Below, one piece after another: positions 7,141-25,914 of a DNA stretch of 36,628 nucleotides. Under the pieces are notes generated by a model, which was not told where the DNA came from, did no database searches, and worked only from the letters and a program-made list of their open reading frames with translations. A program made the position numbers and the translations under genes. How positions within the stretch are numbered: position 1 is the first letter of the stretch; the number at the start of each line of letters is the position of its first letter. The stretch comes from a virus: positions 1 through 36,628 of the IMG/VR virus record IMGVR_UViG_3300020050_011359. One strand, written 5' to 3'.

Positions 7141-7523
7141 TCTCTTTCCTCTCTTGCGTTAATTTCCTTTGATTTTTCATCAATAGGGATTCTGTCATAT
7201 TTAATATCGTAATAAGCTTTTTCAGCTGCTTCACGAATTTCTCTCTCATGCTTTTCAGGATCATATCTCTTAAGTGGTTGCTGTAAGTGATCGCCCCCTG
7301 TTACCTCATATCCTGCAGCTTTTAAAGATGCTTTGTATGCTGATTTTGAATGATAGATTTTATCATCAAGCATTGAGTGAATACCGTCTAATGCTTCGTC
7401 TCTGTGAAAGACTGGGGCAACTTCTAACTTTTTAGGCACATCAATTTTTTCAAGTTCGCCTGTTGTAGTATTAAAGCGAAATCTTCCCCTTTCTCCGTCT
7501 GCTTCTTCAAAGCTCATAATCAT
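7095..7523 (-). CDS. Hypothetical head-assembly-module protein, 142 aa
   Basis: ORF between the portal-side genes and the scaffold gene. Its 3' end overlaps the scaffold start by 46 nt. Confidence 0.6.
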   Translation of the reverse strand: MIMSFEEADGERGRFRFNTTTGELEKIDVPKKLEVAPVFHRDEALDGIHSMLDDKIYHSKSAYKASLKAAGYEVTGGDHLQQPLKRYDPEKHEREIREAAEKAYYDIKYDRIPIDEKSKEINAREEREWKAYQQRQKTTWAR

Positions 7524-12623: not shown

Positions 12624-14117
12624 TTATTTAAGAATGTTTTTACGAGTTGGTATTAATTTCGCTTTTATTCCTGCAGGTGTAAAGCGCGATTTTTTGGCAA
12701 TATCTTTGTCTGATGGTTTTTTTATTGTCAGTGGTCTGGCTGTGCAAGCGTAACGAATTGCATCACAAATGTGCGTCGGCTCTCCATGTTCTGCGGGTAA
12801 TTCAATATTATGTGAATCTCTTGGCAATGAAGGAACGTAATCACGGCAATAATAAGCAGACTCTACAAAATAAATAAGCGGAATATCTTCAATGCCTATT
12901 AGTCTGTCTCGCATTTGCCCAGCTCCTTGAATGCGTGAGGTATTTGCTTTTATAAGTGGTACGCCATGTTGAGCAAAAACATCTGCCATCGTGTGCTTTT
13001 TATTAGTTGTTGGCGAAGTCTCGCCTCTATCTGCAAATGGATAAGAATCAGTAAGTGTTATGTTTGATGTTTTCTCAAGTGTACGTTCAATTATGCCTGC
13101 AGCTATTTGTGGGTTAGATAGGCGTATTCCTTTTTCTGGTGCTGTTGGGTCGCATCCGTACCATTCACGGTAACAAATTAAAGAGCCGCTCGGTAACCAA
13201 AGACTAGAGCCATCAAGTGCTGTGATTTCCTCACCGTCTGAGATTGTCCACCAAAGAACTGCGAACGGTTCAGCGGATCCCCAGTCAAAAGTTCTAAACT
13301 TAAACCAATGCGAAGGAGGTGTGAAATCAGGGATAACATGCTTTTCTTCATCCCATTCAGGGAAGAACTCACCAAGTGCTGCGTCCCAATCACCCTCATC
13401 AAGTGCTTTGGCAAGTGCCTTATCTCCAATACCTTCGAGCCTGCCTGCGTGTGCTTCAAGGTCAACGCTCGGGTTGTCAACGGCGCGAGACGGGATAAAC
13501 TGTCTTAAGAATCCTTCAACCTTTTCTATTTCAAAAGACCGCCTGCACTTAACAAAGTTTCTCTTAAAGAATGGAACGGATACGCCAATAGGGTTGGCTG
13601 TGTATATGATGCGAGGAAACATTTTCTGAGCGTGGTCTGGTAATGCTTCTTTCATTGGCTTTGAAAGACGGCACCAACCACGAAAGAATCGAATCAATCT
13701 CTCACTTATTTGTGTTGCCTCATCAATAACAATTACATGTTTCTCAACTCCTTGAGCTGAATTAAATTGTCTCTCGTCCTGGCAGTGTTGGAAGTAAATT
13801 AAAGAACCATTATGAAATCTAATTTCATCTTGAGTAATCTTAACAATCTTTGCTTTGACTAGTGGTTCAAGTATCGAACGAAATCCAGTTAATCCTTCAA
13901 GATGATTTTTCCTAATATCATCAATCTTTTTTCTTATTAACACGCATTGAAGATTTGATATTGACAAACACCAAGAGATTAAAGCGATACGAACAAAATG
14001 AGACTTACCGCCTTCAGTTGCTCCACCAAATAATAATTCAGTTGCCTCTGTTTGCAGTGCTTGCATTTGTCTTGGATGCAGTGACAAGCTTTCAGAGATA
14101 TCAATTCTTGTTACCAC
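12624..14117 (-). CDS. terL: Terminase large subunit, 497 aa
   Basis: Walker A-like GGATEGGKS near the N-terminus, Walker B-like VIVIDEA, and a C-terminal nuclease-type region. The GTG start at 14117 abuts the TerS stop (14118..14120), and the portal gene follows. Confidence 0.85.
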   Translation of the reverse strand: MVTRIDISESLSLHPRQMQALQTEATELLFGGATEGGKSHFVRIALISWCLSISNLQCVLIRKKIDDIRKNHLEGLTGFRSILEPLVKAKIVKITQDEIRFHNGSLIYFQHCQDERQFNSAQGVEKHVIVIDEATQISERLIRFFRGWCRLSKPMKEALPDHAQKMFPRIIYTANPIGVSVPFFKRNFVKCRRSFEIEKVEGFLRQFIPSRAVDNPSVDLEAHAGRLEGIGDKALAKALDEGDWDAALGEFFPEWDEEKHVIPDFTPPSHWFKFRTFDWGSAEPFAVLWWTISDGEEITALDGSSLWLPSGSLICYREWYGCDPTAPEKGIRLSNPQIAAGIIERTLEKTSNITLTDSYPFADRGETSPTTNKKHTMADVFAQHGVPLIKANTSRIQGAGQMRDRLIGIEDIPLIYFVESAYYCRDYVPSLPRDSHNIELPAEHGEPTHICDAIRYACTARPLTIKKPSDKDIAKKSRFTPAGIKAKLIPTRKNILK

Positions 14118-14543
14118 TTATTTTTTTTCAAAAACATTTGAGATGACCTCAACATTCCCAGAGTGTTCAACGTCTGTTTTATCGCGCCATCTATCTCGAT
14201 TTCTATTTTTTAACCAGAAAATCATTGACGTTGGATCAGGTGGCAATTCTTCTTCTTTAGTAATTACATTACCATCTTCATCAGTGGTAATTGTTTTTTT
14301 TCTCATGCCTCTTGCACGTGCTGCGAGTGCATATTCAATTTGTACAGTGTCAAAATAATCGCGTCCATCCTTTATGGCTGCGGAAAATTCTGGATATTTA
14401 TTTTGCCATTCTGATATTGTATCTATTGATATATCTAAAGCTTGTGCCAATTCAGGACCAGTTGCACCAAGTTTTGAAACTATAGAATAAGCTTGTCTAA
14501 CTGTTTTTTCGCCTTCGTATTTTGTTGGTCTACCGCCGGCCAT
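14118..14543 (-). CDS. terS: Terminase small subunit, 141 aa (N-terminal HTH type)
   Basis: The N-terminus MAGGRPTKYEGE...ISEWQNKYPEFSAAIKDG matches the common GRPTKY HTH small-terminase pattern. It lies directly upstream of TerL. Confidence 0.75.
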   Translation of the reverse strand: MAGGRPTKYEGEKTVRQAYSIVSKLGATGPELAQALDISIDTISEWQNKYPEFSAAIKDGRDYFDTVQIEYALAARARGMRKKTITTDEDGNVITKEEELPPDPTSMIFWLKNRNRDRWRDKTDVEHSGNVEVISNVFEKK

Positions 14544-14730
14544 TGGTTGATGATTCCTGAAACTTTTCTTTATTAGCTTTCAAGGTAAGCTTAAAACATT
14601 TCTTACAAAATACTTTTTTTAAGTCTGATGTCTTACCTGTGATTATGAAATCATATCGTGTGACGTTGCAACCTGTACCACATCTTCCGCGAGTAGCTTG
14701 ATATTCTGCGAGTAGTTGTTGGTCATTCAT
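14530..14730 (-). CDS. Small Cys4 (zinc-ribbon-like) protein, 66 aa
   Basis: CGTGC...CKKC spacing. ATGA overlap with the upstream gene at 14727..14730, and a 14-nt overlap with the TerS start. Confidence 0.55.
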   Translation of the reverse strand: MNDQQLLAEYQATRGRCGTGCNVTRYDFIITGKTSDLKKVFCKKCFKLTLKANKEKFQESSTNGRR

Positions 14731-15128
14731 TCAATTATCCCAGTGAAAGAACATAGCCATTCTTTATTATTCTTGTATTCTTTCACCCTTACACGAATAT
14801 CTTCAATTACGCAATCAGGATTTTCAAGCATTGGGAGTGAGCGAAGAATATTTGCGAGAGAGTTAGGATGATTGTCGGTGAATATGAACTCGTGCAAGAG
14901 TTCGAAAGCTTTTCTGTGATTTTCTTCAAATTGGTCTTTTTTAACTCGCTGTTGTTTACGCTCACGAATATTAGCAATGTGACCTCGTTCATAGCGAGAG
15001 AAATGCTCGAAATTTATATAATCGGTGAGTGCTTTTTGAATAACTGCAATCCAAAGTTTTTCCTCGGGGTAGAAAGCACGAAAATCAAGTAAGATTTCTG
15101 CTGCTGGTATTTTATCCTGAGTAATCAA
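14727..15128 (-). CDS. Hypothetical protein, 133 aa, first gene of the leftward late operon
   Basis: The ORF is open only from 15170. The only start-type codon near the 5' end is TTG at 15128, with no obvious SD, so the start is uncertain. Confidence 0.55.
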   Translation of the reverse strand: MITQDKIPAAEILLDFRAFYPEEKLWIAVIQKALTDYINFEHFSRYERGHIANIRERKQQRVKKDQFEENHRKAFELLHEFIFTDNHPNSLANILRSLPMLENPDCVIEDIRVRVKEYKNNKEWLCSFTGIIE

Positions 15129-15205
15129 CTTGAGAGTATGATGTGGAAAATAAGGAAAAGTTTCAAGAGATTATTTTAACAAAAAATAGCTAAATATTAC
15201 GTATA

Positions 15206-15315
15206 GTTATACCACCTCATGTTCTTTGTTGTGTAATACATCACATGCTAACATATTGATATTACTACACTAATATTATTTAGTTGTGTAATAAAATTAG
15301 GTGTGTGATTATAAT
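15206..15315. promoter_or_regulatory. Divergent control region: leftward extended -10, rightward TATAAT, and two 11-bp direct repeats
   Basis: The minus strand reads TGgTATAAC (15214..15206). The plus strand has TATAAT at 15310..15315. gttgtgtaata occurs at 15228..15238 and 15283..15293 (55 bp apart), each over the -35 zone of one promoter. Confidence 0.35.
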
Positions 15316-15355
15316 TAAAGAGCGGCAATAAAGCCGAATAAAAAAGGACAAAAAG

Positions 15356-15535
15356 ATGAGAAAATTTGAACTAGACAACACCGAGGGATTTACACAAACA
15401 CAATTAGACGCAATGAACGTCAAACTTATTGCAGAGGTAGAAGCAATCGCGGGCGATTACTCAGAAGACGAACAGTGGCTTCTAAACGACGTAATCAAAA
15501 CTATCAAAGAAAGAATTTTAAATGAATCAAACTAA
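15356..15535 (+). CDS. Small acidic protein, 59 aa (below the ORF-track cutoff)
   Basis: Hand translation gives MRKFELDNTEGFTQTQLDAMNVKLIAEVEAIAGDYSEDEQWLLNDVIKTIKERILNESN. aaggac lies 8 nt upstream of the ATG. It overlaps the next ORF by 14 nt. Confidence 0.55.
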   Translation: MRKFELDNTEGFTQTQLDAMNVKLIAEVEAIAGDYSEDEQWLLNDVIKTIKERILNESN

Positions 15536-15698
15536 ACGAGGGCGAAAGCCCTCACCGACAAAAAAACATCGTTATAATATTTGCTTACGGCAAGACGTGC
15601 ATCGAGAGTTGAAAAAACTAGCAGAAAAAGAAGGAATGTCGGTATCTGTCTGGATTAACCGGCAGATACTCTATGCGCTGTTGAAAGATATGCAATAA
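15522..15698 (+). CDS. Ribbon-helix-helix (Arc/CopG-type) DNA-binding protein, 58 aa
   Basis: Hand translation gives MNQTKRGRKPSPTKKHRYNICLRQDVHRELKKLAEKEGMSVSVWINRQILYALLKDMQ. This has a basic N-terminus, a beta-strand (RYNICL) and two helices, the RHH signature. Confidence 0.6.
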   Translation: MNQTKRGRKPSPTKKHRYNICLRQDVHRELKKLAEKEGMSVSVWINRQILYALLKDMQ

Positions 15699-15730
15699 TT
15701 CAAACCACGCTTGACGGTGTGCCAATATTT

Positions 15731-15770
15731 AGACTCAAGGTGTGCAATTGTATGCCTTGAGTCTTTTTTA
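15731..15770 (+). terminator. Rho-independent terminator
   Basis: A 10-bp stem, agactcaagg (15731..15740) with ccttgagtct (15755..15764), followed by TTTTT (15765..15769). It lies 33 nt after the RHH stop. Confidence 0.75.
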
Positions 15771-15820
15771 TGCTTAGGATTGATTATACTAGCTATAAAA
15801 CAATATTCTAATATCAAAGA

Positions 15821-16110
15821 CAATAATAGTATAATAGTACAATAATAGTACTTTTTCTCTGCTGGTAAAAAAACGTCTCAAACACTGTTTTAAAACATGT
15901 AAGTTATTAATATATATATAATATTATATATAAATATATATTATAATAAAATAATAATAGTATAATAGTACAATAGTACCATAGAGCACTTCCCTTTTAG
16001 AACCGAGGGTAAAGAAAGTGCTCTATGATACTATTGTACTATTATACTATAATTAATGAATCCAATGGGTTACAACGTTTTTTTGTACTATTATTGTACT
16101 ATTATTGTAC
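15821..16110. repeat. Origin-like block: ATAATAGTAC iterons in both orientations, a 56-nt pure A/T tract and a 35-bp-arm inverted repeat
   Basis: Forward 10-mers start at 15823, 15831, 15842, 15954, 15962 and 15970. Reverse copies (GTACTATTAT) start at 16028, 16036, 16085 and 16096. 15831..15851 is the exact reverse complement of 16085..16105. 15904..15959 is A/T only. 15957..15991 pairs with 16016..16050 (34/35). Confidence 0.6.
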
Positions 16111-16238
16111 GATTCTGATTTTTTTGCTGTGTCTTGTGCTGAAATAGAACTTAGTTTTGATTCTTCAACTGCCTGGTGAATAATTGCTCGAGCTAATTTC
16201 TCAATCTCGTTTTCTGACAGTTCGTCAATTGATTTCAT
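16053..16238 (-). CDS. Hypothetical protein, 61 aa (internal ATG of track ORF 16053..16334)
   Basis: The ATG at 16238 lies 5 nt past the TAG (16243..16245) of the upstream ATPase gene. The 3' end of this ORF runs through the right-hand iterons, so it may not be real. Confidence 0.35.
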   Translation of the reverse strand: MKSIDELSENEIEKLARAIIHQAVEESKLSSISAQDTAKKSESYNNSTIIVQKNVVTHWIH

Positions 16239-16242
16239 ATCA

Positions 16243-17493
16243 CTATTTGATTCTTGTGATATATTTGCTGGATTTTTGAGCAATATCGAATCTCTCGTCA
16301 ATTTTAAGAATTTGTTCTTCAACCAACTCATCAACCGTTTGATCCCTTAATTTTGATGGCTTAATTTTCGGAAAATTAGCCGCCCTTGAAAATTCAGACC
16401 ACGGAATTGCTTGTCCAATTTTCAAATATTTCTCAATCCTAGTCAGTATCTTTTCTCTAATCTTATTGCTATTTTTCTCTTCTTGATTATCGAATAATCG
16501 CTCAAAGCAAACTTTAGCAGCTGACTCAGTTAAAAATCTAACTAGAGCTTCAGCGTACCTAAAGCATGACTCTGAGACAATACCTTTTTCACTCAAAATG
16601 ATCGCAACCTTGACCGTGTTTTCAAACATCCGCCTATAATAAGCTGACAAAATCGGGTTTGATTTCTCATTTTCCTCGCTGAATATCTTGGCTGTCTCTT
16701 TCAATATTAACGCAAATTCAAGCGCGCCAGAGTCAAACTCAACAACCGTATTTTTAACCCGCAAATACTTACCAACATCGCCCGCCATTTCTTCAGGCTC
16801 GCCTGTTTCTAGGTCAATTACCTCATATATAATTTTATTACTGATTTTCGTATAATACGACTCTTTGCCGACCGTCTTATCTTCTCCAAGAAATATTAGT
16901 ATGCGTGGCAGAAAACCATCTTCCACAAAATCTGAAGATAATGCATCAAAAAAACGTGCGGGCGTACTTGCTGCAAAAAGGGATAACATAGGCTTGTCAA
17001 TGTCAATCCTTTTCTCTTTTGAATATTCCTTGCCACGATATTTTCTTTTTCCCGCTGAATATAAAGCCATGATTGTTGCAAGAATTCGCGCTTCATAGCT
17101 CGCCTTCCCTGTTGCAAGGGCACGTAGGGCGACCCCAAACTCATCCCATATTAACAACTGTCTTGGCTCTCTTGATAATGCGCTTAATATTGCAACGTCA
17201 CTTGCTGGCTCACCCATAAGTAAGTGATCCAGATTACACTCAGCGCAAATTTCTTCGATAACGGATTGACACTGTGATTTACCGGTTGATGTCAAAGCAA
17301 TCGAACAAGAATAAAGATTAGGATTAATCCCGAACTGACTTGTTTCACGCCCTGATTTCAAAGCCCCAACAAAAGAAAGAGCTGCCCCCAATGCAAGACC
17401 AGGCTGATGAAATTCAAGTCGGTCATAAATAAGACGCGCAATTTCACCGGCTAGCCCTGGGCAATTTTTCAAAAATCTTTCAGTTGTGTGCAT
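16243..17493 (-). CDS. DUF3987/SF3-helicase-like replication ATPase, 416 aa
   Basis: Walker A-like LTSTGKSQ and Walker B-like LLIWDEFG. The overall look resembles phage/plasmid DUF3987 (D5/P4-type) proteins. I prefer the ATG at 17493 (acaggacaaaga SD-like) over the GTG at 17523 used in the track. Confidence 0.55.
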   Translation of the reverse strand: MHTTERFLKNCPGLAGEIARLIYDRLEFHQPGLALGAALSFVGALKSGRETSQFGINPNLYSCSIALTSTGKSQCQSVIEEICAECNLDHLLMGEPASDVAILSALSREPRQLLIWDEFGVALRALATGKASYEARILATIMALYSAGKRKYRGKEYSKEKRIDIDKPMLSLFAASTPARFFDALSSDFVEDGFLPRILIFLGEDKTVGKESYYTKISNKIIYEVIDLETGEPEEMAGDVGKYLRVKNTVVEFDSGALEFALILKETAKIFSEENEKSNPILSAYYRRMFENTVKVAIILSEKGIVSESCFRYAEALVRFLTESAAKVCFERLFDNQEEKNSNKIREKILTRIEKYLKIGQAIPWSEFSRAANFPKIKPSKLRDQTVDELVEEQILKIDERFDIAQKSSKYITRIK

Positions 17494-17648
17494 TCTTTGT
17501 CCTGTTTGATGATTTGCTCCCACTCCTTTAATGCATAATTAAGAAAAGCAAGGTACTTTCTGTTGCCTGACTCGCAAGCAGTTAGAAGCTCTTTTTTAAT
17601 GTATTTCAGCATTCGTTCGTCGAAGTCTGATAATTCTTGCGGGCTCAT
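17469..17648 (-). CDS. Small protein, 59 aa (below the ORF-track cutoff)
   Basis: Hand translation gives MSPQELSDFDERMLKYIKKELLTACESGNRKYLAFLNYALKEWEQIIKQDKECTQLKDF. ATGA overlap with the upstream HTH gene stop (17645..17648). It overlaps the ATPase start by 25 nt. Confidence 0.45.
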   Translation of the reverse strand: MSPQELSDFDERMLKYIKKELLTACESGNRKYLAFLNYALKEWEQIIKQDKECTQLKDF

Positions 17649-17869
17649 TTTGCCTTGAAATTGATTGCTTCTAATTCTTGGAAAGTCAAGCCGGTTTTTT
17701 TCATAACAGATTTATAATGCGACATATGCATTTGAGATCTGTTTGTCTGCCATCTCCATATAGTTGAGCGATTAACAGATAAAAGCTTCTTAGTTTTCTC
17801 GATTCCGCCAAGAACAAAAATTAATTCTTTCATAGATGATATTTTTTTCATAAAAACATCTTGCAACAT
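17645..17869 (-). CDS. Cro/YdaS-like helix-turn-helix protein, 74 aa
   Basis: ...LGGIEKTKKLLSVNRSTIWRWQ... is a typical short phage HTH. It is the first gene of the leftward replication operon. The start could instead be the internal MKKISS. Confidence 0.5.
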   Translation of the reverse strand: MLQDVFMKKISSMKELIFVLGGIEKTKKLLSVNRSTIWRWQTNRSQMHMSHYKSVMKKTGLTFQELEAINFKAK

Positions 17870-17896
17870 GATATGATTTAATGCAATAGTCTTTTT

Positions 17897-18124
17897 ATGT
17901 TGATACGAGATTTAAACAATACTTTCTTTTTTACTACCAGCGCTTTTTACGTTACTAACATAAATTCAGCTTTAAGAATTATTAGTAATAACTATAGAGA
18001 AACTGGCGTGATTTGTATTGACGACATAAACCCTCAAGAGGCAATGGATCATATATATAAATGCTACAAGCGAGACGACCGATGCTGTGATTTAAATGAT
18101 TTAAAAAAGGATAAGGCGAAATGA
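17897..18124 (+). CDS. Small Cys-rich protein, 75 aa; paralog of 18315..18572
   Basis: It shares the N-terminus M-x-I-x-D-x-NN-x-x-F and the C-terminal E-x-x-D-x-I-x-x-CY-x-x-x-x-R-x-CDL-x-x-x-K with the 85-aa ORF. Confidence 0.6.
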   Translation: MLIRDLNNTFFFTTSAFYVTNINSALRIISNNYRETGVICIDDINPQEAMDHIYKCYKRDDRCCDLNDLKKDKAK

Positions 18125-18318
18125 GAGGATACATAAATAAAGACTGTCTCGAACTTGGATGTAAAGAGATTTTACTTACACAAACTCCAACAGCATTAAA
18201 TCAAGTTGAAGTTATAATTATACCAATGCTTGAATACTTAGAACTCCAAGAGGCGTGTGAGAAAATCAAGGAATTATGTAAAGAACCAATATTAGTAAAT
18301 AATAAATTTTTAAAATGA
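18121..18318 (+). CDS. Hypothetical protein, 65 aa
   Basis: ATGA-type overlaps with both flanking genes (18121..18124 and 18315..18318). Confidence 0.55.
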   Translation: MRGYINKDCLELGCKEILLTQTPTALNQVEVIIIPMLEYLELQEACEKIKELCKEPILVNNKFLK

Positions 18319-18572
18319 TAATTATAGATAAAGATAACAACATACTTTTTACCAATACATTGATGGGTATTGGTAAATCAATGCAGGACACCAATGCTTT
18401 AATTTTACATTTAAATATAAAGGAATATGTACTATGTCAATTTCCAGATTGTATAACTCAAGATGAATGCATTGATTACATTTGTCAGTGCTATCAAAAC
18501 GAAAATAGAATTTGCGACTTAAGAAATGCCAAGGAGCAAATAGAGGCAAATGAGAAATTTTTAAAAGGATAA
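18315..18572 (+). CDS. Small Cys-rich protein, 85 aa; paralog of 17897..18124
   Basis: See 17897..18124. The motif DECIDYICQCYQNENRICDLRNAK matches QEAMDHIYKCYKRDDRCCDLNDLK. Confidence 0.6.
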   Translation: MIIIDKDNNILFTNTLMGIGKSMQDTNALILHLNIKEYVLCQFPDCITQDECIDYICQCYQNENRICDLRNAKEQIEANEKFLKG

Positions 18573-18575
18573 AAA

Positions 18576-19385
18576 ATGAAAATACAAGACACAAAAATAA
18601 CTAAACCGCCTAAAATATTCCTATTTGGAAAACCAGGCCATGGAAAATCAAGATTTTTCGCATCATGCCCTAACCCGCTGTTTATACAGACAGAAGATAG
18701 GCTGGCACATCTTAGCGTAAAATCAGGAGGCATGATTGATAGCTATCAAGAACTGATTGACCAATTAACATGGGTACGAGATGCCGACCACGATTTTAAA
18801 ACAGTGGTTATTGATACAGGTGACAGCGCGCAGAAATTTATAGAAAAAGAAATATGCAGAATTGCCGGTTGTTCATCAATTACTGATGAGAAAAAACTTG
18901 CTTATTATGTCGGATACGTAAAAGTTGCTGAGAAATGGGAGAAAGAAATATTGCCAATTTTAACAGAGATAAACGAGAAGCGAAAAATGATTGTGGCGAT
19001 TACATCACACCTTACAGTTAGTAAGATTGAGCATCCGCAATATGGAGAACACGATCAATTTCAACCATCAATAGATAAACGCTCTGCAAAAGTAATCAAG
19101 GGTTGGGGTGATATCGTAGCATTTCTTGACATGAGAGCAGGTATAAAAAACCAAGACGAAAAAGAAGAAACCGTACGTTTTCGTGAAAGCTCTCAAAGAG
19201 TATTACGCCTAAGACCACAGCCGTTTTGGGATACAAAAGAATCTTACAACTTACCGGATTATATAGACTTACCAACAGAAAAACCTGGTGAATTTCTAGG
19301 TTGGAAACTATTGGCTGAGGCTATCCGATATGGTGTGGGAGTTAAAGAAGCAAAAAATGAAAATAATGATAAAGGAAAAGAATAA
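18576..19385 (+). CDS. Sak4-like (AAA_24 type) RecA-fold recombination ATPase, 269 aa
   Basis: N-terminal KIFLFGKPGHGKS (Walker A) and VVIDTGD (Walker B). SD aaggat precedes the ATG. The size and the pairing with a downstream DUF669/SSB-like gene are typical. Confidence 0.65.
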   Translation: MKIQDTKITKPPKIFLFGKPGHGKSRFFASCPNPLFIQTEDRLAHLSVKSGGMIDSYQELIDQLTWVRDADHDFKTVVIDTGDSAQKFIEKEICRIAGCSSITDEKKLAYYVGYVKVAEKWEKEILPILTEINEKRKMIVAITSHLTVSKIEHPQYGEHDQFQPSIDKRSAKVIKGWGDIVAFLDMRAGIKNQDEKEETVRFRESSQRVLRLRPQPFWDTKESYNLPDYIDLPTEKPGEFLGWKLLAEAIRYGVGVKEAKNENNDKGKE

Positions 19386-19852
19386 TGAGCGATTTTGATA
19401 AATATGACATAGAAAATTTTGAAGAAGTAACACGCGAGCGAGTAGCCGAAGGTGAATATAATCTTGAAATAATCGATGCAAGCATGGATGAAAAGGACGA
19501 ACTAGTTTTAGTAAAAGTAAAATATGGAATTATTGGCGGAAAGTTTGAAGGGCAATGGCTGTTTGATAATTTTGCAATCTTATGTTTAGCAAATAAAGAT
19601 AGGCAAAATATCGGCAAAGCAATGTTTAAAAGACTGCGTGAGTCTGTTGGTTTAAGCGAAGTTAAAAATGTAAGCGAGCTGATTGGCAAGAAATTGAGAG
19701 CCGAACTTGTTTGGAATGGTAAATTCAATAATCTTAAAAACTATAATGCATTTAATATTAATTCTTATCTTGATGAAAAAAATGCCGAGGTTAGTTCAGG
19801 CTTTGAAGATATGCCGGATAAAGAGGACGATAGTGACGACATTCCTTTCTAA
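19385..19852 (+). CDS. SSB-like (DUF669-type) protein with a bacterial-SSB acidic tail, 155 aa
   Basis: The pattern EGEYNLEIID...VKVKYGIIGGKFEGQWLFDNF fits DUF669. The C-terminus DKEDDSDDIPF matches the DDDIPF partner-binding tip of bacterial SSB. ATGA overlap with the ATPase gene. Confidence 0.6.
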   Translation: MSDFDKYDIENFEEVTRERVAEGEYNLEIIDASMDEKDELVLVKVKYGIIGGKFEGQWLFDNFAILCLANKDRQNIGKAMFKRLRESVGLSEVKNVSELIGKKLRAELVWNGKFNNLKNYNAFNINSYLDEKNAEVSSGFEDMPDKEDDSDDIPF

Positions 19853-19876
19853 AATGGTATTGCAATTCCGTTTTAA

Positions 19877-19920
19877 ATATGACATGCTATGATTATGAAA
19901 AAATGTATAGCATGTCATAT
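19877..19920 (+). promoter_or_regulatory. Perfect 14-bp inverted repeat bracketing the HNH gene start codons
   Basis: atatgacatgctat (19877..19890) and atagcatgtcatat (19907..19920) are exact reverse complements. The 16-nt spacer holds the ATG at 19895, and the ATG at 19889 starts in the left arm. Confidence 0.5.
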
Positions 19921-20356
19921 AGAAAAACCTTTAGATAATTTTCATAAACATCCGCAAATGAAAGATGGACATTTAAATAAATGCAAAGTATGCGTTAATT
20001 TATATGTTCATCAATACAGAAAAGACAATCTAGAATCTATAAGGAAGTATGATCGAGAGAGGGGAAGAACTGAGAAACGTCTTTTTTTAAATAGGGAAAG
20101 AATTAAAAAAAAGAAAAAAGAATATACTGCAATAGGTATTAGATGGAGAGAGCGTAATCCTGATAAAAGAGCGGCGCATGTAATATTGGGTAATGCTGTT
20201 AGAGATAGGCGCATTTTTAAACAACCATGTGAAGTTTGTGGAAATATTAAAGTTGATGGGCATCACGATGATTATACTAAACCACTTGAAGTTAGATGGT
20301 TATGCAGAAAACACCACAAAGAACTTCATAGAAAATATACAGACATCCCTTTCTGA
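19889..20356 (+). CDS. HNH (His-Me finger)/zinc-ribbon protein, 155 aa; paralog of 26458..26859
   Basis: N-terminal CxxC...CxxC. C-terminal KQPCEVCG...GHHDDYTKPLEVRWLCRKHHKELH is the common phage HNH pattern. It ends ...KYTDIPF. Confidence 0.65.
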   Translation: MIMKKCIACHIEKPLDNFHKHPQMKDGHLNKCKVCVNLYVHQYRKDNLESIRKYDRERGRTEKRLFLNRERIKKKKKEYTAIGIRWRERNPDKRAAHVILGNAVRDRRIFKQPCEVCGNIKVDGHHDDYTKPLEVRWLCRKHHKELHRKYTDIPF

Positions 20357-20369
20357 TTGATTGAAACCC

Positions 20370-20402
20370 GTGTTAGCCGAGCGGGGACGATTCGGCTATT
20401 TA
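20370..20402 (+). promoter_or_regulatory. Conserved intergenic motif, copy 1 (GTGTTAGCCGAGC-N9-TCGGC-TATTTA)
   Basis: The 13-mer gtgttagccgagc (20370..20382) recurs at 24469, and with 1 mismatch at 24369. The dyad is tagccga/tcggcta. TTAGCC and TATTTA are spaced like -35/-10 elements. It lies 14 nt after the HNH stop. Confidence 0.45.
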
Positions 20403-20403
20403 T

Positions 20404-20489
20404 GAGCGAGCGACTATGCGCGATAAGGGCTATATATGTTTATAGTTTTTGGACGGCCAGTAACCAATCTGGCCTCGCTCTCTTTTTTT
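20404..20489 (+). ncRNA. Candidate structured small RNA (cloverleaf-like, about 77 nt, plus U-tract)
   Basis: A 7-bp closing stem, gagcgag (20404..20410) with ctcgctc (20474..20480). Internal hairpins are tat/ata, ctata/tatag (20430..20445) and ggccag/ctggcc (20455..20474). These are followed by tc+TTTTTTT (20483..20489). Confidence 0.35.
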
Positions 20490-20505
20490 ATTTGAGGAAA
20501 TAATT

Positions 20506-20682
20506 ATGAGTTGTTTAGGCTATTGTGATGAATGCGGTGAATATGATCGATTAGTTCGATGCTACAAAAATATTTTAATTGATGGCCCGATATTGCTTTG
20601 TTCGGAATGTGAAGTTGAATTCGATGATTTAATGATGAAAGTCTTAACTAAAAAGGAGAACGAGGTTGAGGAAAATATATGA
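20506..20682 (+). CDS. Small zinc-ribbon protein, 58 aa (below the ORF-track cutoff)
   Basis: Hand translation gives MSCLGYCDECGEYDRLVRCYKNILIDGPILLCSECEVEFDDLMMKVLTKKENEVEENI. SD gaggaa lies upstream. ATGA overlap with the next gene at 20679..20682. Confidence 0.6.
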   Translation: MSCLGYCDECGEYDRLVRCYKNILIDGPILLCSECEVEFDDLMMKVLTKKENEVEENI

Positions 20683-20885
20683 GTAGAAAAATAATACAAA
20701 TAACATCTTCATGTTGCAGTGACATGAATGGTTCAGATCTCTTTTTTTTAGACGCTTTATGCGACGATGGTACGGTTTGGGAATATATGCCAACAACTGA
20801 TAGTTGGTTTAAGCTTTCTGATATTCCTCAAGACGAAGAAAAACCACAAGAGGTATTAAATGGAAAAGAGTGTATTGTCAGATAG
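20679..20885 (+). CDS. Hypothetical protein, 68 aa
   Basis: ORF coupled by ATGA to the upstream zinc-ribbon ORF. Confidence 0.55.
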   Translation: MSRKIIQITSSCCSDMNGSDLFFLDALCDDGTVWEYMPTTDSWFKLSDIPQDEEKPQEVLNGKECIVR

Positions 20886-21114
20886 AGAAGTTCTTAAAGC
20901 GTTCATGGATTTTAGAATTCAAATAAAGTGGTTAGAAGCCGAGAATCTAATGTTACGGGAAAGAGTGATAAAAGAAGAAGGCTATGAATCTAAAGCATGG
21001 CAAGCTGGCTGGGATAATTGCAGTAAAAAAAGACGTGACCGCGACAAATGCTTCAATTATCAGGAGTGGAAAAAAAGACAACACACTTTAGAATATTCAA
21101 GAAGAGATATATGA
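20860..21114 (+). CDS. Hypothetical protein, 84 aa
   Basis: The ATG at 20860 is preceded by agaggt (SD). It overlaps the upstream ORF by 26 nt. Confidence 0.55.
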   Translation: MEKSVLSDREVLKAFMDFRIQIKWLEAENLMLRERVIKEEGYESKAWQAGWDNCSKKRRDRDKCFNYQEWKKRQHTLEYSRRDI

Positions 21115-21392
21115 GCCGAACATTTACATGTGATATATGCGGGACGCATAGATGGGATACGGAAAATAATTGTCCTGTTTGTATAGGGCATTGCGAAAAA
21201 ACCGAAGATGAAAAGAAATACGAAATAATCGAGCCTTATATATGCCAAAAATGCCATAAAACATATGGGAAAACAAATTTAGAATATGAGAAATGCGCCA
21301 TATATGTAACGTGTGACTGTGGTTCTAAGGAGGAGATTTATATAGTAAACACTAACAACATTAAAACCACTTTAATCGTTGACAACTTGTAA
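21111..21392 (+). CDS. Cys-rich (multi-CxxC) zinc-finger-like protein, 93 aa
   Basis: I prefer the ATG at 21111 (ATGA overlap with the upstream stop) over the track start at 21048. The sequence is MSRTFTCDICG...CPVCIGHC...CQKCH...CDCG. Confidence 0.55.
   Translation: MSRTFTCDICGTHRWDTENNCPVCIGHCEKTEDEKKYEIIEPYICQKCHKTYGKTNLEYEKCAIYVTCDCGSKEEIYIVNTNNIKTTLIVDNL
21369..21386 (+). repeat. 18-bp direct repeat, left copy (actttaatcgttgacaac)
   Basis: Identical 18-mer at 21678..21695. Both contain TTGACA. Together they bracket the 95-aa ORF. Confidence 0.9.
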
Positions 21393-21396
21393 CCAT

Positions 21397-21684
21397 ATGA
21401 CAAAACCATACGTAAGATTAATAGACCCCTTCCCTTATCCGTCAATTAACGGATTAAAAGCCCTCCCTGAAAAATATTATTGGGTTGGCTACATTAAAAA
21501 CCGTAGACATATCAGCGAAGATATAGAAAACGAAGAAGAAGCATTAGGCAAATTTTTAACATTAAAGAGTAAATATAAGTCAGCTTTTATGCTTCTCATT
21601 AATGCACCAACAGTTGGAACGCTAGGCGGAATTGATAGATCGAACACTAGTGATCATCGTTGGTTCAGGAATAATAAACTTTAA
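21397..21684 (+). CDS. Hypothetical early protein, 95 aa, with a capsid-derived C-terminal peptide
   Basis: I prefer the ATG at 21397 (the track uses TTG at 21379). The C-terminus PTVGTLGGIDRSNTSDHRWFRNNKL parallels MCP residues PTTGTVGGIDRSSANAAWFRNQKF. The DNA core ggcggaattgatagatc (21625..21641) matches the MCP gene at 16/17 positions. Confidence 0.55.
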   Translation: MTKPYVRLIDPFPYPSINGLKALPEKYYWVGYIKNRRHISEDIENEEEALGKFLTLKSKYKSAFMLLINAPTVGTLGGIDRSNTSDHRWFRNNKL

Positions 21685-21695
21685 TCGTTGACAAC
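21678..21695 (+). repeat. 18-bp direct repeat, right copy
   Basis: Identical to 21369..21386. Confidence 0.9.
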
Positions 21696-21716
21696 AAACA
21701 ACAATCAACGTATAAG
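21688..21716 (+). promoter_or_regulatory. Sigma70-type promoter candidate
   Basis: TTGACA (21688..21693), a 17-nt spacer, then TATAAG (21711..21716). It lies 26 nt upstream of the ATG at 21742, which has an aaaggaa SD. Confidence 0.45.
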
Positions 21717-21741
21717 ATAACAAACCATAAAGGAAATAAAT

Positions 21742-22041
21742 ATGAAACAATTTGTAATTAGACATGGAGATGTGATTGTCCGTTCAACAAACGAAACAAT
21801 TCAAGGTAAAGAGAAAAAAGATAAGGCGTTAGCTTATGGAGAAGTGACAGGACATTCACATAGAATGAAGGGTAATTCTCAAGTTTTTGAGTTTAACAAT
21901 AAAATGTATTTAAAAGTTTTGTCAGAATTAGATTGTTTGACTCATGAAGAACACGGCAATATTGAAATTCCTCAAGGAGATTATGAGGTAATCATTCAGC
22001 GTGATTATATTCCAGGCGGATGGGTAAAGGTTATTGATTAA
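21742..22041 (+). CDS. Hypothetical protein, 99 aa (GEVTGHSH...HEEHG motif)
   Basis: ORF with a good SD. The His-rich motifs GEVTGHSH and THEEHG recall a recurrent phage family of unknown function. Confidence 0.6.
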   Translation: MKQFVIRHGDVIVRSTNETIQGKEKKDKALAYGEVTGHSHRMKGNSQVFEFNNKMYLKVLSELDCLTHEEHGNIEIPQGDYEVIIQRDYIPGGWVKVID

Positions 22042-22062
22042 TAAAAATATAATTGGGGATAT

Positions 22063-23187
22063 ATGAAAAAAATTGAGACACTAACGGAAGAGCAAAAAGC
22101 AAAATTTCCAGAATATGTAAATAAGTGGATCAGTATTGGATTAAGCACTGAAAACCCTAGTAAGGAAGTTGCACAAAATTCAATTATAAAAGTTTATGAA
22201 TCAGCAGGGGTGCCCGCCCCAAAAACTTTTATTTGGGTTGAATCCCCTCTACATGCAGGAGTTTGTTATGCTTTATTAAAAGATAATAAGTTGGCTTCTG
22301 TCGGGGCTTCTCTCAGGGCTTCTGTCTGGGATTCTGTCTGGGATTCTGTCTGGGATTCTGTCGGGGCTTCTGTCAGGGATTCTGTCTGGGATTCTGTCGG
22401 GGCTTCTGTCGGGGCTTCTGTCTGGGATTCTGTCTGGGATTCTGTCGGGGCTTCTGTCGCGGATTCTGTCAGGGATTCTGTCAGGGCTTCTGTCGGGGAT
22501 TCTGTCAGGGATTCTGTCAGGGATTCTGTCTGGGCTTCTGTCTGGGATTCTGTCGGGGATTCTCTCAGGGATTCTTGCTATGGATCTCATGATGCTAATT
22601 GGCTTGCATTTTACAAGTATATGCATGACGAATTAAATGTTGATTGCTCTAAGCTTAATGGATTATGGGAAGCGGCAGAAAATTGTGGTTGGTTTATTCC
22701 TTTTGAAAATATTGTAATCATTTCTCCAAAACCTTATCAAATTAAAACAAAACTAAACGATAGAGGGCACCATATTTTACATGCTGATGGCGAGCCTGCT
22801 GTTTTTTATTGTAATGATTTTAAAATTTATTCTCGTGAAGGAATTAGAATTCCTGAAAAGTATGGCTCTGTTAAGGCAGAAGACTGGAAAGCGGAATGGT
22901 TCATTGAAGAAACTAACGTAGAAATCAAAAGATTAATAGCTGAAGCTATTGGATATGAGAAATTATTTGATGCTTTAAATGCAAAGGAAATTTCTCAACA
23001 TAGAGAATATAAATTATACAGAGCCGAAAATGTCGACGTAGAACCAATGCATATACTTACAATGATATGTCCTTCTACTAAGAAAATACATTACGGGAGA
23101 GTGCCTCCGACAATAACAAGCGCAAGAGAGGCAGCAACCTGGAGAAACCAAGGCATTGAGCCTGAAAGTTTTATGGTGGAACAATAA
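22063..23187 (+). CDS. Tetrapeptide-repeat protein, 374 aa: N-domain, 24 x [A/D]-S-[V/L]-[W/G/R/A] repeats, then a ~200-aa C-domain
   Basis: The ORF contains the 288-nt tandem repeat. The C-terminal domain (DANWLAFYKY...GEPAVFY...VPPTITSAREAATW) resembles a widespread bacterial/phage family of unknown function that I recall but cannot verify here. Confidence 0.7.
   Translation: MKKIETLTEEQKAKFPEYVNKWISIGLSTENPSKEVAQNSIIKVYESAGVPAPKTFIWVESPLHAGVCYALLKDNKLASVGASLRASVWDSVWDSVWDSVGASVRDSVWDSVGASVGASVWDSVWDSVGASVADSVRDSVRASVGDSVRDSVRDSVWASVWDSVGDSLRDSCYGSHDANWLAFYKYMHDELNVDCSKLNGLWEAAENCGWFIPFENIVIISPKPYQIKTKLNDRGHHILHADGEPAVFYCNDFKIYSREGIRIPEKYGSVKAEDWKAEWFIEETNVEIKRLIAEAIGYEKLFDALNAKEISQHREYKLYRAENVDVEPMHILTMICPSTKKIHYGRVPPTITSAREAATWRNQGIEPESFMVEQ
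22294..22581 (+). repeat. In-frame tandem repeat, 24 units of 12 nt (consensus GMTTCTGTCNGG)
   Basis: Read directly: gcttctgtcggg / gattctgtctgg / gattctgtcaggg-type units follow back to back. They encode ASVG ASLR ASVW DSVW DSVW DSVG ... DSLR DSCY. Confidence 0.95.
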
Positions 23188-23421
23188 ATGAAACGAAAAG
23201 CAACCCCAAAGCAACACGCAAAAAGGCTTAAAAACTTTAGCAACAATTTTAAATATTTCAGACATGACGCTAATTTATCCCAAACAGAACTAGCGCAAAG
23301 ACTAGGAGTAAGAAAACAAACAGTTTTTCACTATGAACATGGTATGCGCTACCCTGGAATTGATATAATCATGACTCTTTGTGATGTTTTTTGCTGTACA
23401 CCGGATGAGTTATTATTATGA
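23188..23421 (+). CDS. XRE-family helix-turn-helix regulator, 77 aa
   Basis: ...ANLSQTELAQRLGVRKQTVFHYEHGMRYPGIDIIMTLCDVF... is a classic XRE HTH. The ATG abuts the TAA of the repeat-protein gene. Confidence 0.75.
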   Translation: MKRKATPKQHAKRLKNFSNNFKYFRHDANLSQTELAQRLGVRKQTVFHYEHGMRYPGIDIIMTLCDVFCCTPDELLL

Positions 23422-23431
23422 AAAAAATATG

Positions 23432-23460
23432 TTAACAAGCTTAATGAGTCAACATATAAG
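23432..23460 (+). promoter_or_regulatory. Sigma70-type promoter candidate with an overlapping imperfect palindrome
   Basis: TTAACA (23432..23437), a 17-nt spacer, then TATAAG (23455..23460). atatgttaac (23428..23437) and gtcaacatat (23449..23458) are 9/10 inverted. Confidence 0.35.
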
Positions 23461-23488
23461 TTAACTATAACATTTAAAAGGACAAACA

Positions 23489-23722
23489 ATGAAAACAATA
23501 AAAATAGTACCAACACAAACCGAGCTAACAGAAGAGCAATTATGTGAAATTTGCAACGAGTATGATGTTATAATCGAGGTAAGTGATAACAGGCTTTTCT
23601 CTGTTTACTCACCAGGTAATAGCAAGCATACCGAGCGTGATTTTTCTTGGAGTAATATGAAGCATGAATATTGTGAAGAAATAAGCGAGTATGAAAAATC
23701 AAGACCAACGGATGAGGAATGA
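23489..23722 (+). CDS. Hypothetical protein, 77 aa
   Basis: ORF with aaaagga SD. Confidence 0.55.
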   Translation: MKTIKIVPTQTELTEEQLCEICNEYDVIIEVSDNRLFSVYSPGNSKHTERDFSWSNMKHEYCEEISEYEKSRPTDEE

Positions 23723-23723
23723 T

Positions 23724-23843
23724 ATGAGAAATAAATTTTTCACAAAACAAGACATATTTGAAATAATTGAAATAATAATTGCTGCAGCTTTCTCAATTAT
23801 TATGATCTACATGTTGACCATTATTTTTTGGAGTTACCAATGA
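23724..23843 (+). CDS. Tiny single-pass membrane protein, 39 aa (below the ORF-track cutoff)
   Basis: Hand translation gives MRNKFFTKQDIFEIIEIIIAAAFSIIMIYMLTIIFWSYQ. The ATG is 1 nt after the upstream stop. ATGA overlap with the next ATG at 23840. Confidence 0.45.
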   Translation: MRNKFFTKQDIFEIIEIIIAAAFSIIMIYMLTIIFWSYQ

Positions 23844-24082
23844 AAAACATAGAAGAAGCTTTAGATATTTTCATGATTGCGTATCGATTAGGTGAAGTAA
23901 AAGATATGAAAAATTTACTTAACTCAGATATGCGAAAAGTGGGAAGAATGCACATAAATAACTATTATAAAAATAAGGAAAAACAAAATGAGAAAAATAA
24001 TATTAGCAATACTAGTGATAACATCAACAGCAATTGCAGACGACTTAACGACTTGCAATCCGGTGTCAAAGTATTCGCTTAG
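23840..24082 (+). CDS. Hypothetical protein, 80 aa
   Basis: I prefer the ATG at 23840 (the track uses TTG at 23828). The low-complexity C-terminal third overlaps the next gene by 95 nt, so the true end or reality of that tail is uncertain. Confidence 0.4.
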   Translation: MKNIEEALDIFMIAYRLGEVKDMKNLLNSDMRKVGRMHINNYYKNKEKQNEKNNISNTSDNINSNCRRLNDLQSGVKVFA

Positions 24083-24329
24083 AGATGAAAACATTGGCAG
24101 CATGACTTTAAGATGTCCAAACGGGCAATTTATGGGAGCTGTCACTTGTTCAAGCGAATTATATAGAAACGCCCAAGAGGTAACTTTACTGTCTAGCAAT
24201 AGTGCAAGATGCGATTTTGAGCTTCAAGTTGAGAATGAAGAAAGTGATTATGATAACGAGTATAATTTAATTGCTGAACCAATTGTGATTGATAGAGCGA
24301 GATTGCAGATTAATTGTTGCACTAGGTAA
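23988..24329 (+). CDS. Secreted Cys-rich protein, 113 aa (signal peptide)
   Basis: The N-terminus MRKIILAILVITSTAIA-DD is a typical Sec signal. There are six Cys in the mature part. SD aagga lies 9 nt upstream. Confidence 0.6.
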   Translation: MRKIILAILVITSTAIADDLTTCNPVSKYSLRDENIGSMTLRCPNGQFMGAVTCSSELYRNAQEVTLLSSNSARCDFELQVENEESDYDNEYNLIAEPIVIDRARLQINCCTR

Positions 24330-24368
24330 TTTTTCAGCGGGACCTTACAGACCTGGGTTCACCATAAT

Positions 24369-24403
24369 GTGTTTGCCGAGCATTGCTGATTCGGCTTTAT
24401 TTT
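24369..24403 (+). promoter_or_regulatory. Conserved intergenic motif, copy 2 (GTGTTTGCCGAGC-N9-TCGGC-TTTATTTT)
   Basis: gtgtttgccgagc (24369..24381). The dyad is gccga (24375..24379) with tcggc (24391..24395). TTGCCG, 17 nt, then TTTATT. It lies 40 nt after the upstream stop and exactly 100 bp before copy 3. Confidence 0.45.
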
Positions 24404-24468
24404 AAAATAGTTGCAATTAATGACCCTGAAAGTGTGGTGGAATAAAAACACAAGATAGTTTTGAAGAG

Positions 24469-24500
24469 GTGTTAGCCGAGCCTTTACATCGGCATTATAT
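24469..24500 (+). promoter_or_regulatory. Conserved intergenic motif, copy 3 (GTGTTAGCCGAGC-N7-TCGGC-ATTATAT)
   Basis: gtgttagccgagc (24469..24481). The dyad is gccga/tcggc (24489..24493). TTAGCC, 17 nt, then TTATAT (24495..24500). It ends 1 nt before the tRNA-like gene. Confidence 0.45.
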
Positions 24501-24501
24501 G

Positions 24502-24572
24502 GGGGAGTTAGCAAAGTGGTAAATGTCGGAGATAACATCTTTAAGTCGTTGGTTCGATTCCAACACTTCCCC
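24502..24572 (+). tRNA. tRNA-like gene with a shortened anticodon arm (possible degenerate tRNA; AAC in the anticodon position)
   Basis: Acceptor ggggagt/acttccc (7 bp, one G-U), U8, D-arm gcaa-agtggtaa-atgt with GG, T-arm gttgg-ttcgatt-ccaac, and a 5-nt variable loop. The anticodon arm is only 15 nt: either a 6-bp stem with triloop AAC, or a 4-bp stem with loop aUAACAu. No CCA is encoded. Confidence 0.45.
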
Positions 24573-24616
24573 ACGTTTAAGAAGAACAGAAATAAACAGA
24601 ATAAAGAAGGTGAGTG

Positions 24617-25120
24617 ATGAGTGAGTTTGAGAAAATTCAAAAACTAGTCAGAGACATGCAATCAAGCGAAACACCTGTTTTGCCAGTTTACGAACCTAAT
24701 TTATTTTCTATAGCAAAAGAAGCTTATAGGTTAGCCCGAGCCGAGGTGATTGAGGAGGTGAAAGAATTATTTACTGACATGTGGGATTCTACATTTTTTA
24801 ACAAGAACTCAAATATTACAAAGACTAACCAAACTAAGCGAGGTGGAGAAATGAGCGAAGAAACAAAAGCACCAGAAATACCTGGGTTTCGGGAAACCGA
24901 AAGAAATATATGGATTAAATTAAAGTCGGAAAATAGGGCAGTTGCGATTGTTCAAGGGACTCAGTTCTACTACAAACGCAGCAAGCCGAAGGAGAAATCT
25001 ATTAGGGAGATAATTCAAGAGGAATTAAAGCTTTGGAGTCACTCTAATAGAGATTTATTTGCAAATGCCTTTGAACGCATACTAGAAAACTACGTAAAGA
25101 AAGAGGGGGGAGATGATTAA
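24617..25120 (+). CDS. Hypothetical protein, 167 aa
   Basis: The ATG at 24617 is preceded by aaggtg (SD). The track uses the GTG at 24614. Confidence 0.65.
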   Translation: MSEFEKIQKLVRDMQSSETPVLPVYEPNLFSIAKEAYRLARAEVIEEVKELFTDMWDSTFFNKNSNITKTNQTKRGGEMSEETKAPEIPGFRETERNIWIKLKSENRAVAIVQGTQFYYKRSKPKEKSIREIIQEELKLWSHSNRDLFANAFERILENYVKKEGGDD

Positions 25121-25352: not shown

Positions 25353-25395
25353 CACTCACACAAGACCAAGAAAAAGAAAAAGAAAGAGGGGTGAG

Positions 25396-25794: not shown

Positions 25795-25870
25795 CGGATG
25801 AAGAGTTGGAATAAAGAAGATTAATTTTAAAATCAGTAGTCTTTAGCACTATTTATTCTACTGATTTATC

Positions 25871-25914
25871 AGTGTGCATGGTTCGTTTGTCCTTACCATG
25901 CACACTGTTTTTTA
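25871..25914 (+). terminator. Rho-independent terminator at the convergent junction
   Basis: An 11-bp stem, agtgtgcatgg (25871..25881) with ccatgcacact (25896..25906), followed by gTTTTTTaTTTT. It sits between the plus-strand gene end (25794) and the minus-strand gene end (25912). Confidence 0.75.

Follow-up and report, generated by a model that had tools for sequence, protein, structure and literature searches.

We propose that positions 15825-16114 of a 36,628-nt stretch of viral DNA (IMG/VR record IMGVR_UViG_3300020050_011359, here referred to in its entirety as the window) are a replication origin, and that the DUF3987 (MCM-like, SF6) helicase encoded beside them acts as its own initiator. 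We estimate the probability of this reading at roughly 75%. It is favored by three comparative observations: in most relatives, the helicase gene is followed by the same architecture, though spelled in other repeat words; swaps of the packaging module and insertions of genes leave the element next to that gene; and the repeat word covaries with the C-terminal winged helix of the helicase. It is further supported by a fitting protein fold (MCM-like, with a winged helix-turn-helix, wHTH), by the precedent of the SaPI/PICI replicons, and by the presence of a single cluster of the word in the genome. The comparative evidence thus supports the preliminary description of this DNA, which had proposed that iterons and an unwinding element beside an initiator gene form an origin at this place.

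In the scheme that we infer, from helicase binding through melting and self-loading to the part of the host replisome and the mode of replication, the winged-helix domain would recognize 8-mer iterons (core T-A-G-T-A) that stand as four triplets. The head-to-head arrays B and C together with the outer arrays A and D would nucleate helicase oligomers, the adjacent 56-nt A/T tract would melt and the helicase would then load itself, with priming and synthesis carried out by host enzymes.

Genome organization

The first 121 bases of the window are repeated exactly as its last 121 bases (1-121 and 36508-36628). This terminal direct repeat is explained as an assembly overlap, which indicates that the genome is complete and either circular or terminally redundant; its true length is about 36,507 bp (~36.5 kb). 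Using megablast with 15000-18000 against GenBank phages, we found no match and no close relative, and the TerL of this genome is ~35% identical to Pseudomonas and Salmonella phage terminases.

The layout of genes and features is given in Table 1. The operon with the RHH gene has its own canonical terminator at 15731-15770. The DUF3987 protein is the sole replicative-helicase-type protein detected in the genome; the preliminary description had called it the only replication-type ATPase, which holds for helicases of this type and not for ATPases in general, since a Sak4-like AAA_24 recombination protein is a further ATPase encoded at 18576-19385. Among the ORFs scanned (including the larger unassigned ORFs, which were compared to Pfam, PHROG and NCBIfam), no primase, DNA polymerase or integrase was detected. 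The upstream neighbors of the helicase gene encode a 74-aa HTH protein and a 59-aa protein, neither of which matches a primase, and for a 375-aa protein (27218-28345) considered in the search for a primase, the single-sequence AF2 model was unusable (pLDDT 42).

Two further features of the early region were observed. First, it contains two paralogous HNH/endonuclease VII-like genes at 19889-20356 and 26458-26859, both of which belong to phrog_2340. Second, the HTH gene and the first of the plus-strand early genes diverge from start codons that are only 27 bp apart (17869-17897). This distance is too short for two ordinary promoters, and therefore one of the starts is probably misassigned or the promoters overlap coding sequence.

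Cumulative GC skew, which had been suggested as a check on the origin, has its minimum at 17967, 1.9 kb from the element, and its maximum at 28561. Because both extremes coincide with switches of the coding strand, the 1.9-kb offset does not refute an origin at 15825-16114, and the skew is uninformative either way.

Table 1. Positions of genes and sequence features in the window
Feature	Coordinates	Strand	Remarks
Structural and packaging genes	15128 down to 227, wrapping to 36512-28589	-	TerS 14118-14543, TerL, portal, major head protein, amidase
Two-gene cassette	15356-15698	+	59-aa protein and 58-aa RHH/Arc-like protein
Iteron array A	15825-15851	+	Units at 15825, 15833 and 15844; 8- and 11-nt spacing
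Conserved non-iteron segment between A/T tract and array A	15852-15908	-	Includes AATAACTTACA (15898-15908, minus strand)
Pure A/T tract, proposed DNA-unwinding element	15904-15959	.	56 nt without G or C
Iteron array B	15956-15979	+	Units at 15956, 15964 and 15972; 8-nt spacing; left arm of long inverted repeat
Dyad spacer between head-to-head arrays B and C	15980-16027	.	
Iteron array C	16028-16051	-	Units at 16028, 16036 and 16044 (degenerate); 8-nt spacing; right arm of inverted repeat
Iteron array D	16085-16114	-	Units at 16085 and 16096 (AATAGTAC) and 16107 (variant AATCGTAC); 11-nt spacing
Small conserved gene, 61 aa	16053-16238	-	Directly after helicase gene; 3' third overlaps array D
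DUF3987/MCM-like (SF6) helicase, proposed origin-binding initiator	16243-17493	-	416 aa from ATG at 17493
C-terminal winged-helix domain, proposed iteron reader	16246-16485	-	Residues 337-416; AF2 model
Operon of helicase gene	17869-16243	-	74-aa HTH protein, 59-aa protein, 416-aa DUF3987 protein
Early genes	17897-28608	+	Sak4-like AAA_24, DUF669, two HNH endonucleases, VRR-NUC resolvase

Architecture of the repeat block

The block at 15825-16114 consists of 12 units of the 8-mer AATAGTAC, which are spaced by 8 or 11 nt and form four triplets, two in forward and two in reverse orientation. The repeats, the A/T tract and the inverted repeat all lie where the preliminary description had placed them. 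That description had counted six forward and four reverse copies; the positions of these copies are right, while the count has to be raised to the 12 units. As had also been reported, the outer arrays are inverted copies of each other, 15831-15851 being the exact reverse complement of 16085-16105.

The word is strongly concentrated in the block. With up to one mismatch allowed, ATAATAGTAY has 22 matches genome-wide compared to 6.0 ± 2.1 in shuffled sequences, and none of 100 shuffles reached 22; all eight exact matches lie within 15823-16105. The AATAGTAC core occurs 10 times versus 0.96 times expected, and 7 of these 10 occurrences are inside the block. The genome has no second cluster of the iteron word, the three exact matches elsewhere being isolated and unclustered (~1 is expected by chance).

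The A/T tract, in which we confirmed the absence of G and C, is the longest A/T-only run of the genome, the runner-up having a length of 23 nt, and no other 50-mer in the genome forms a less stable duplex than 15909-15958 (z = 5.3). The tract is located off the center of symmetry, i.e., between arrays A and B, which have the same orientation, while the dyad is located between arrays B and C. The near-perfect inverted repeat that had been described (15957-15991 versus 16016-16050) matches at 34 of 35 positions and grows to 45-nt arms (15952-15996 and 16011-16055) at 91%. For the long inverted repeat as single-stranded DNA, we calculated -33.9 kcal/mol versus -6.2 ± 2.0 kcal/mol for shuffled sequences (z = -13.9). 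The dyad spacer contains non-iteron inverted repeats (CATAGAGCACTT and AAGTGCTCTATG) and a small inner G+C hairpin, the register of which shifts between lineages in an ungapped alignment. On the far side of the A/T tract, the conserved segment next to array A is nearly identical across the close clade even though the iterons change.

Searching Rfam at a permissive threshold, we obtained only miRNA-precursor look-alikes of the long hairpin with scores far below the gathering scores, and no RNA family. No DnaA boxes were found in 15700-16200, and matches to the DnaA box genome-wide were at chance level.

The element follows the helicase gene in relatives

Using the helicase protein as a query, we identified 26 relatives, the contigs of which were compared after addition of IMG/VR loci (lineages and loci are designated L001 and onward). 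A single-protein scan of IMG/VR detected no relative, whereas an alignment-based scan did, and no relative was found in the GTDB genomes scanned. The helicases of the relatives are 27-90% identical, and most of their genes are followed at the same place by lineage-specific 8-mer arrays. Among 11 distinct lineages with readable downstream sequence, 9 have 8-mer arrays, 1 has only an A/T tract and 1 has neither. Seven of the nine array-bearing lineages also have an A/T run; L006, L007 and L024 are without a comparable run within the array block.

A typical lineage has an 8-mer in both orientations, a dyad spacer and an A/T-only run, which is usually the longest of the locus. The arrays start at or just after the helicase stop codon in L001 to L008, L020, L022, L023 and L024, the helicases of which are 27-84% identical, and the longest A/T run of the locus is found at the same place in L001, L002, L003, L004, L005, L008, L016, L017, L020, L022 and L023. 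The repeat words are A(A/T)TCGTAC in L001, AATTCACC in L003, CAGTATAC in L005, AAACTTCT in L006, ATAAATAG in L007, ACTCAAAT in L008, GAATAGTTC in L020 and L022, GGTACCC in L023 and TTGACGAAAG in L024. The relatives also retain a dyad spacer with inverted-repeat ends, the sequence of which differs. There are two exceptions. In L016 and L017, no arrays follow the helicase gene, where there is an A/T tract between the arms of a short inverted repeat, and in L019, nothing comparable is present downstream of the helicase gene.

We note that a motif at the distal edge of the A/T tract, A(T/A)ACTTAYA, which corresponds to AATAACTTACA at 15898-15908 of the window (minus strand), recurs in four lineages with unrelated iterons, namely, in L003 (~7436-7446), L006 (~7424-7434), L007 (~1711-1721) and L023 (~4092-4100). 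Its role could be that of a promoter element of the -10 type, of a site for priming or of a signal for loading.

A small gene overlaps array D

In close relatives, a 61-aa gene lies between the helicase gene and the remainder of the block. This gene is conserved in L001, L010, L011, L014 and L015, with a pN/pS of 0.04-0.31 in conserved segments, and its product has no family match. It is missing in distant relatives, in which the arrays begin at the helicase stop codon. Because the 3' third of the gene is written over array D, switches of the iteron alter its amino acids (e.g., S to R).

An additional A in an A-run frameshifts the end of the gene in L012 and L013. The outermost unit of array D (16107-16114) is AATCGTAC even where the other units are AATAGTAC, as is the case in the window and in L011. 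In L015, the outermost unit is AATCGGAA and the other units are AATAGGAC. Judged from these sequences, the outermost unit may be a relic of an ancestral C-type iteron that is held in place by the coding constraint of the small gene.

The helicase is MCM-like and has a C-terminal winged helix

The open reading frame of the helicase reaches back beyond the ATG to a GTG at 17523. The protein matches Pfam DUF3987 (PF13148) with an E value of 2.7e-10 and 40.4 bits (cutoff, 27), and it matches PHROG 3022, phage primase/helicases, in their C-terminal half only (E value of 1e-48). An AF2 model built from 24 homologs has a pLDDT of 88.7 and a pTM of 0.81. Comparing this model to the PDB with Foldseek, we found that every top match is an MCM2-7 subunit (E values of about 2e-8). 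The Walker A (G71-K72) and Walker B (D117-E118) motifs are invariant in the 24 homologs, and the modeled winged helix comprises helices at residues 337-356, 365-371 and 380-392, a strand at 362-364 and a wing at 396-402/408-414. Thus, the protein has the features expected of a DUF3987 (SF6) helicase, i.e., a Pfam score above gathering, intact Walker A and B motifs and a (modeled) C-terminal wHTH.

DUF3987 proteins have been assigned to SF6 as distant relatives of MCM with a C-terminal wHTH (PMC4889955), and helicase activity has been demonstrated for one of them (PMC11724360). Usually, DUF3987 helicases are accompanied by a primase (PMC4889955). The MCM-like model together with the published assignment to SF6 supports that the preliminary description was right to name DUF3987, and that its term "SF3-like" should read "SF6/MCM-like." A profile search of all PDB chains with the helicase gave only noise at E values of ≤1. 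As in the winged-helix AAA+ proteins MCM and ORC/Cdc6, the AAA+ core is followed by a C-terminal winged helix. Compared to MCM, the phage helicase is without the N-terminal OB/zinc domain (target-normalized TM-score of ~0.3), and, different from both MCM and ORC/Cdc6, it is encoded beside its own specific (proposed) binding sites.

The repeat word covaries with the winged helix

The closest homologs form a set of six helicases that are 83-90% identical to one another. The iteron core in this close clade is TAGTA in the window and L011, TAGGA in L015, TCGTA in L001 and L012 to L014, and TCGGA in L009 and L010, such that all four combinations of A or C at position 4 and T or G at position 6 occur. 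The switch between cores is concerted: essentially every copy changes, whichever strand it is on, and the A/T tract and the spacer remain nearly identical.

Among the six helicases, R/K370, A(V)/Q371 and P/H375 split exactly with position 4 of the iteron, and N373 versus T/S373 splits with position 6; this correlation comes from six related sequences and partly follows their phylogeny. Five of the seven helicase columns that are consistent with position 4 lie within residues 361-387. In the AF2 model, the covarying residues are in the helix-turn-helix part of the winged helix, whereas the tip of the wing varies without a change of the iteron. These comparisons provide a strong lead, though not proof, that residues 370-375 of the winged helix, by which the helicase would bind the repeats, read the iteron word. 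Judged from the alignment, position 4 appears to be read by P/H375 with R/K370 and A/Q371, and position 6 by N versus T/S373. On this basis, the close clade could represent a natural 2 × 2 series in which the two positions are read independently, and we tentatively suggest a modular recognition code, an idea that we hold to be possible rather than probable.

The preliminary description had suggested the ATPase, the HTH protein and the RHH protein as binders of the repeats; the covariation speaks for the ATPase and for neither of the others. The RHH protein is excluded as the reader: it is identical at 54 of 58 positions between the window and L010, with the same β-strand region despite different iterons, the β-strand region in L012 is also that of the window while the iterons differ, and the protein is absent from L001 and L009. 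The HTH protein is an unlikely reader, as its predicted recognition helix is identical in the window and L010, the iterons of which differ at two positions. Three more candidates were rejected. p133 is 90% identical between the window and L012, which have different iterons; p59 is 86% identical between L010 and L012 (different iterons) and 51% identical between L001 and L012 (same iteron); and TerS belongs to an unrelated family in L009 and L010, yet their iteron is one base from that of L012.

These observations bear on a transcriptional role of the block, in which the repeats would be operators for the RHH (15522-15698) or the HTH (17645-17869) repressor and the hairpin a terminator or insulator that sets the early helicase operon apart from its neighbors. 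RHH proteins bind tandem or inverted short repeats, and the RHH gene is 120 bp from a block that separates transcription units; moreover, on the helicase strand, a T-rich run comes after the hairpin, which is very stable. Nevertheless, we consider this role quite unlikely. Neither regulator tracks the iteron word, the RHH cassette is missing from two relatives, and there is neither a copy of the word near any promoter region nor another cluster. The RHH operon already ends in a terminator, and a terminator role would leave the 12 oriented sites and the 56-nt A/T tract unexplained. It is possible that the hairpin serves as the terminator of the helicase operon in addition to being part of an origin.

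The element is linked to the helicase gene rather than to packaging genes

The R sites of lambda cosB and the hexamers of P1 pac are repeats bound by terminase, and the block could accordingly be a packaging site (pac or cos), with repeats that the small terminase subunit would bind ahead of the packaging operon. Like these sites, it is a cluster of short oriented repeats upstream of packaging genes, and in L001, L003 and L009, no other intergenic region separates the helicase gene from the terS/terL late operon. Also, the window and L001, which have different iterons, encode TerS proteins that diverge mainly in their DNA-binding N-terminal half, while L001 and L012 have a common iteron and a common TerS (93%). 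However, L009 and L010 have an unrelated TerS (DUF5681, 91 aa, 20% identity to that of the window) and a TerL that is only 34% identical, and despite these swapped packaging genes, they have the same origin skeleton with an iteron 1 nt from that of L012.

The location of the element also points away from packaging. The arrays of L006 and L008 directly adjoin the stop codon of the helicase gene and are ~1.3-1.5 kb from the packaging genes, with opposite-strand genes in between, and in the window, the element is separated from terS by 1.3 kb and four genes. More generally, the window, L006, L008, L010 and L012 to L014 have further genes that separate the element from the packaging genes, and in each of them, the element stays at the helicase gene. 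L009 and L010 have an identical helicase, and their origins are the same through the arrays and the A/T tract, while the flanks differ. Based on the swap of the packaging module and the linkage of the element to the helicase gene, we consider a packaging site very unlikely: upon recombination, the repeats follow the helicase module and not the terminase module, in which they differ from the lambda and P1 sites. Because the element is also upstream of the late/packaging operon, it may have an additional role beside that of an origin.

The exchange of modules among these genomes has features of its own. Near-identical replication modules are joined to two unrelated packaging modules (window, 12624-15128 versus L009, 7228-9467 and L010, 3330-5569), one with a phrog_309 TerS and a 497-aa TerL and the other with a DUF5681 TerS and a 511-aa TerL (34% identity), and the recombination junction is located between terS and a conserved gene of 133 aa. 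Together with their terminator, the genes of the 59-aa and RHH proteins behave as a mobile cassette on the opposite strand (window, 15356-15770; L010, 2690-3102; L012, 4834-5541), which is present in the window, L010 and L012 to L014 and absent from L001 and L009, although the helicases and origins of L009 and L010 are identical. In L012, the cassette has a larger upstream partner gene of 108 aa.

The weakest alternative, that the block serves a phage-plasmid as its partition (centromere-like) site, to which an RHH centromere-binding protein would bind, is scarcely credible: 8-nt units in mixed orientation beside an RHH gene resemble the short-repeat arrays bound by the RHH centromere-binding proteins omega and ParR, but the scan of 37 ORFs yielded no ParA- or ParM-type ATPase, and the RHH protein is uncoupled from the iteron word and missing from relatives in which the element is retained.

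Comparison with known replication systems

By analogy, the closest described system is the SaPI/PICI replicon. The Rep protein of these elements is a self-loading helicase with a C-terminal winged helix that binds iterons, and the origin is immediately 3' of rep, where 6-12 short iterons surround an AT-rich melting region (PMC9371898; PMC6092414). Similarly, the block (16114-15825) is directly 3' of the helicase stop codon (16243), which the first iteron touches in distant relatives. Its 12 iterons are in both orientations, with the A/T tract separating array A from arrays B to D, and the iteron words are element specific. The protein is confidently predicted to be an AAA+/MCM-like ATPase of the ring-helicase type with a C-terminal winged helix, which, judged from the covariation, may read the iterons, and SaPIbov1-type Rep is likewise SF6.

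There are also clear differences. The arrays flanking the A/T tract (A and B) point the same way, whereas SaPI iterons are opposed; in the window, the opposition is between B and C, while L003 follows the SaPI rule in that the arrays flanking its A/T tract are opposed. In addition, the 8-mers of the phage form four triplets, the A/T tract is off-center, and a long inverted repeat, the spacer of which is structured, forms the dyad that separates the opposed arrays. The helicase has no sequence similarity to Rep1/PriRep5 in a PDB profile search (the structures of which are assumed to be included), and no SaPI Rep is among the top 50 fold matches of its model. No pri gene was detected beside or fused to the helicase gene among the ORFs scanned. 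Finally, the host element is not a satellite but a complete 36.5-kb phage with structural genes. Counting against the origin reading are the failure to detect a primase or DNA polymerase among the ORFs scanned, the same orientation of arrays A and B, and the exceptions L019 and L016/L017.

The α protein of P4 is a multifunctional initiator in which an SF3 helicase with a fused primase has a C-terminal winged-helix origin-binding domain. It recognizes octamer iterons (TGTTCACC type) in both orientations, and P4 requires a second iteron cluster (crr) some kilobases away. The order of helicase and C-terminal winged helix and the octamer iterons in both orientations are shared with the phage described here, but the single cluster, the SF6 fold and the lack of a primase domain argue against a P4-like system.

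In iteron theta plasmids (pPS10, RK2, R6K and F), initiator sites and an A/T-rich unwinding element are located beside the initiator gene; the iterons are direct repeats of ~17-22 bp, the Rep_3-type initiators have two winged helices and no helicase activity, and the origins need DnaA boxes and host DnaB/DnaC (PMC4980987). The phage element resembles them in its repeated initiator sites, A/T-rich element and adjacent initiator gene, and differs from them in that the units are 8-mers at 8/11-nt spacing and the proposed initiator is itself a helicase. There was no Rep_3 match among the ORFs scanned, and the 8-mer units and the absence of DnaA boxes argue against a Rep_3-type iteron origin.

Implications

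The element reveals no new principle of replication initiation, and staphylococcal pathogenicity islands were already known to have such a layout. It carries the SaPI/PICI type of origin over to complete phages and is useful for annotating origins beside DUF3987 helicases. For this uncultured phage group, we provide a concrete, testable candidate pair of origin and initiator, and the comparisons point to residues of a DUF3987/MCM-like helicase that may read the origin. Because four natural specificity variants exist, the series of iterons and winged helices is directly testable. These observations bear on replicon specificity among co-infecting phages and their satellites. If true, the recognition code would allow co-circulating phages to keep private origins. 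Phages of this kind might also be a source of, or an exchange partner for, the replication modules of satellites.
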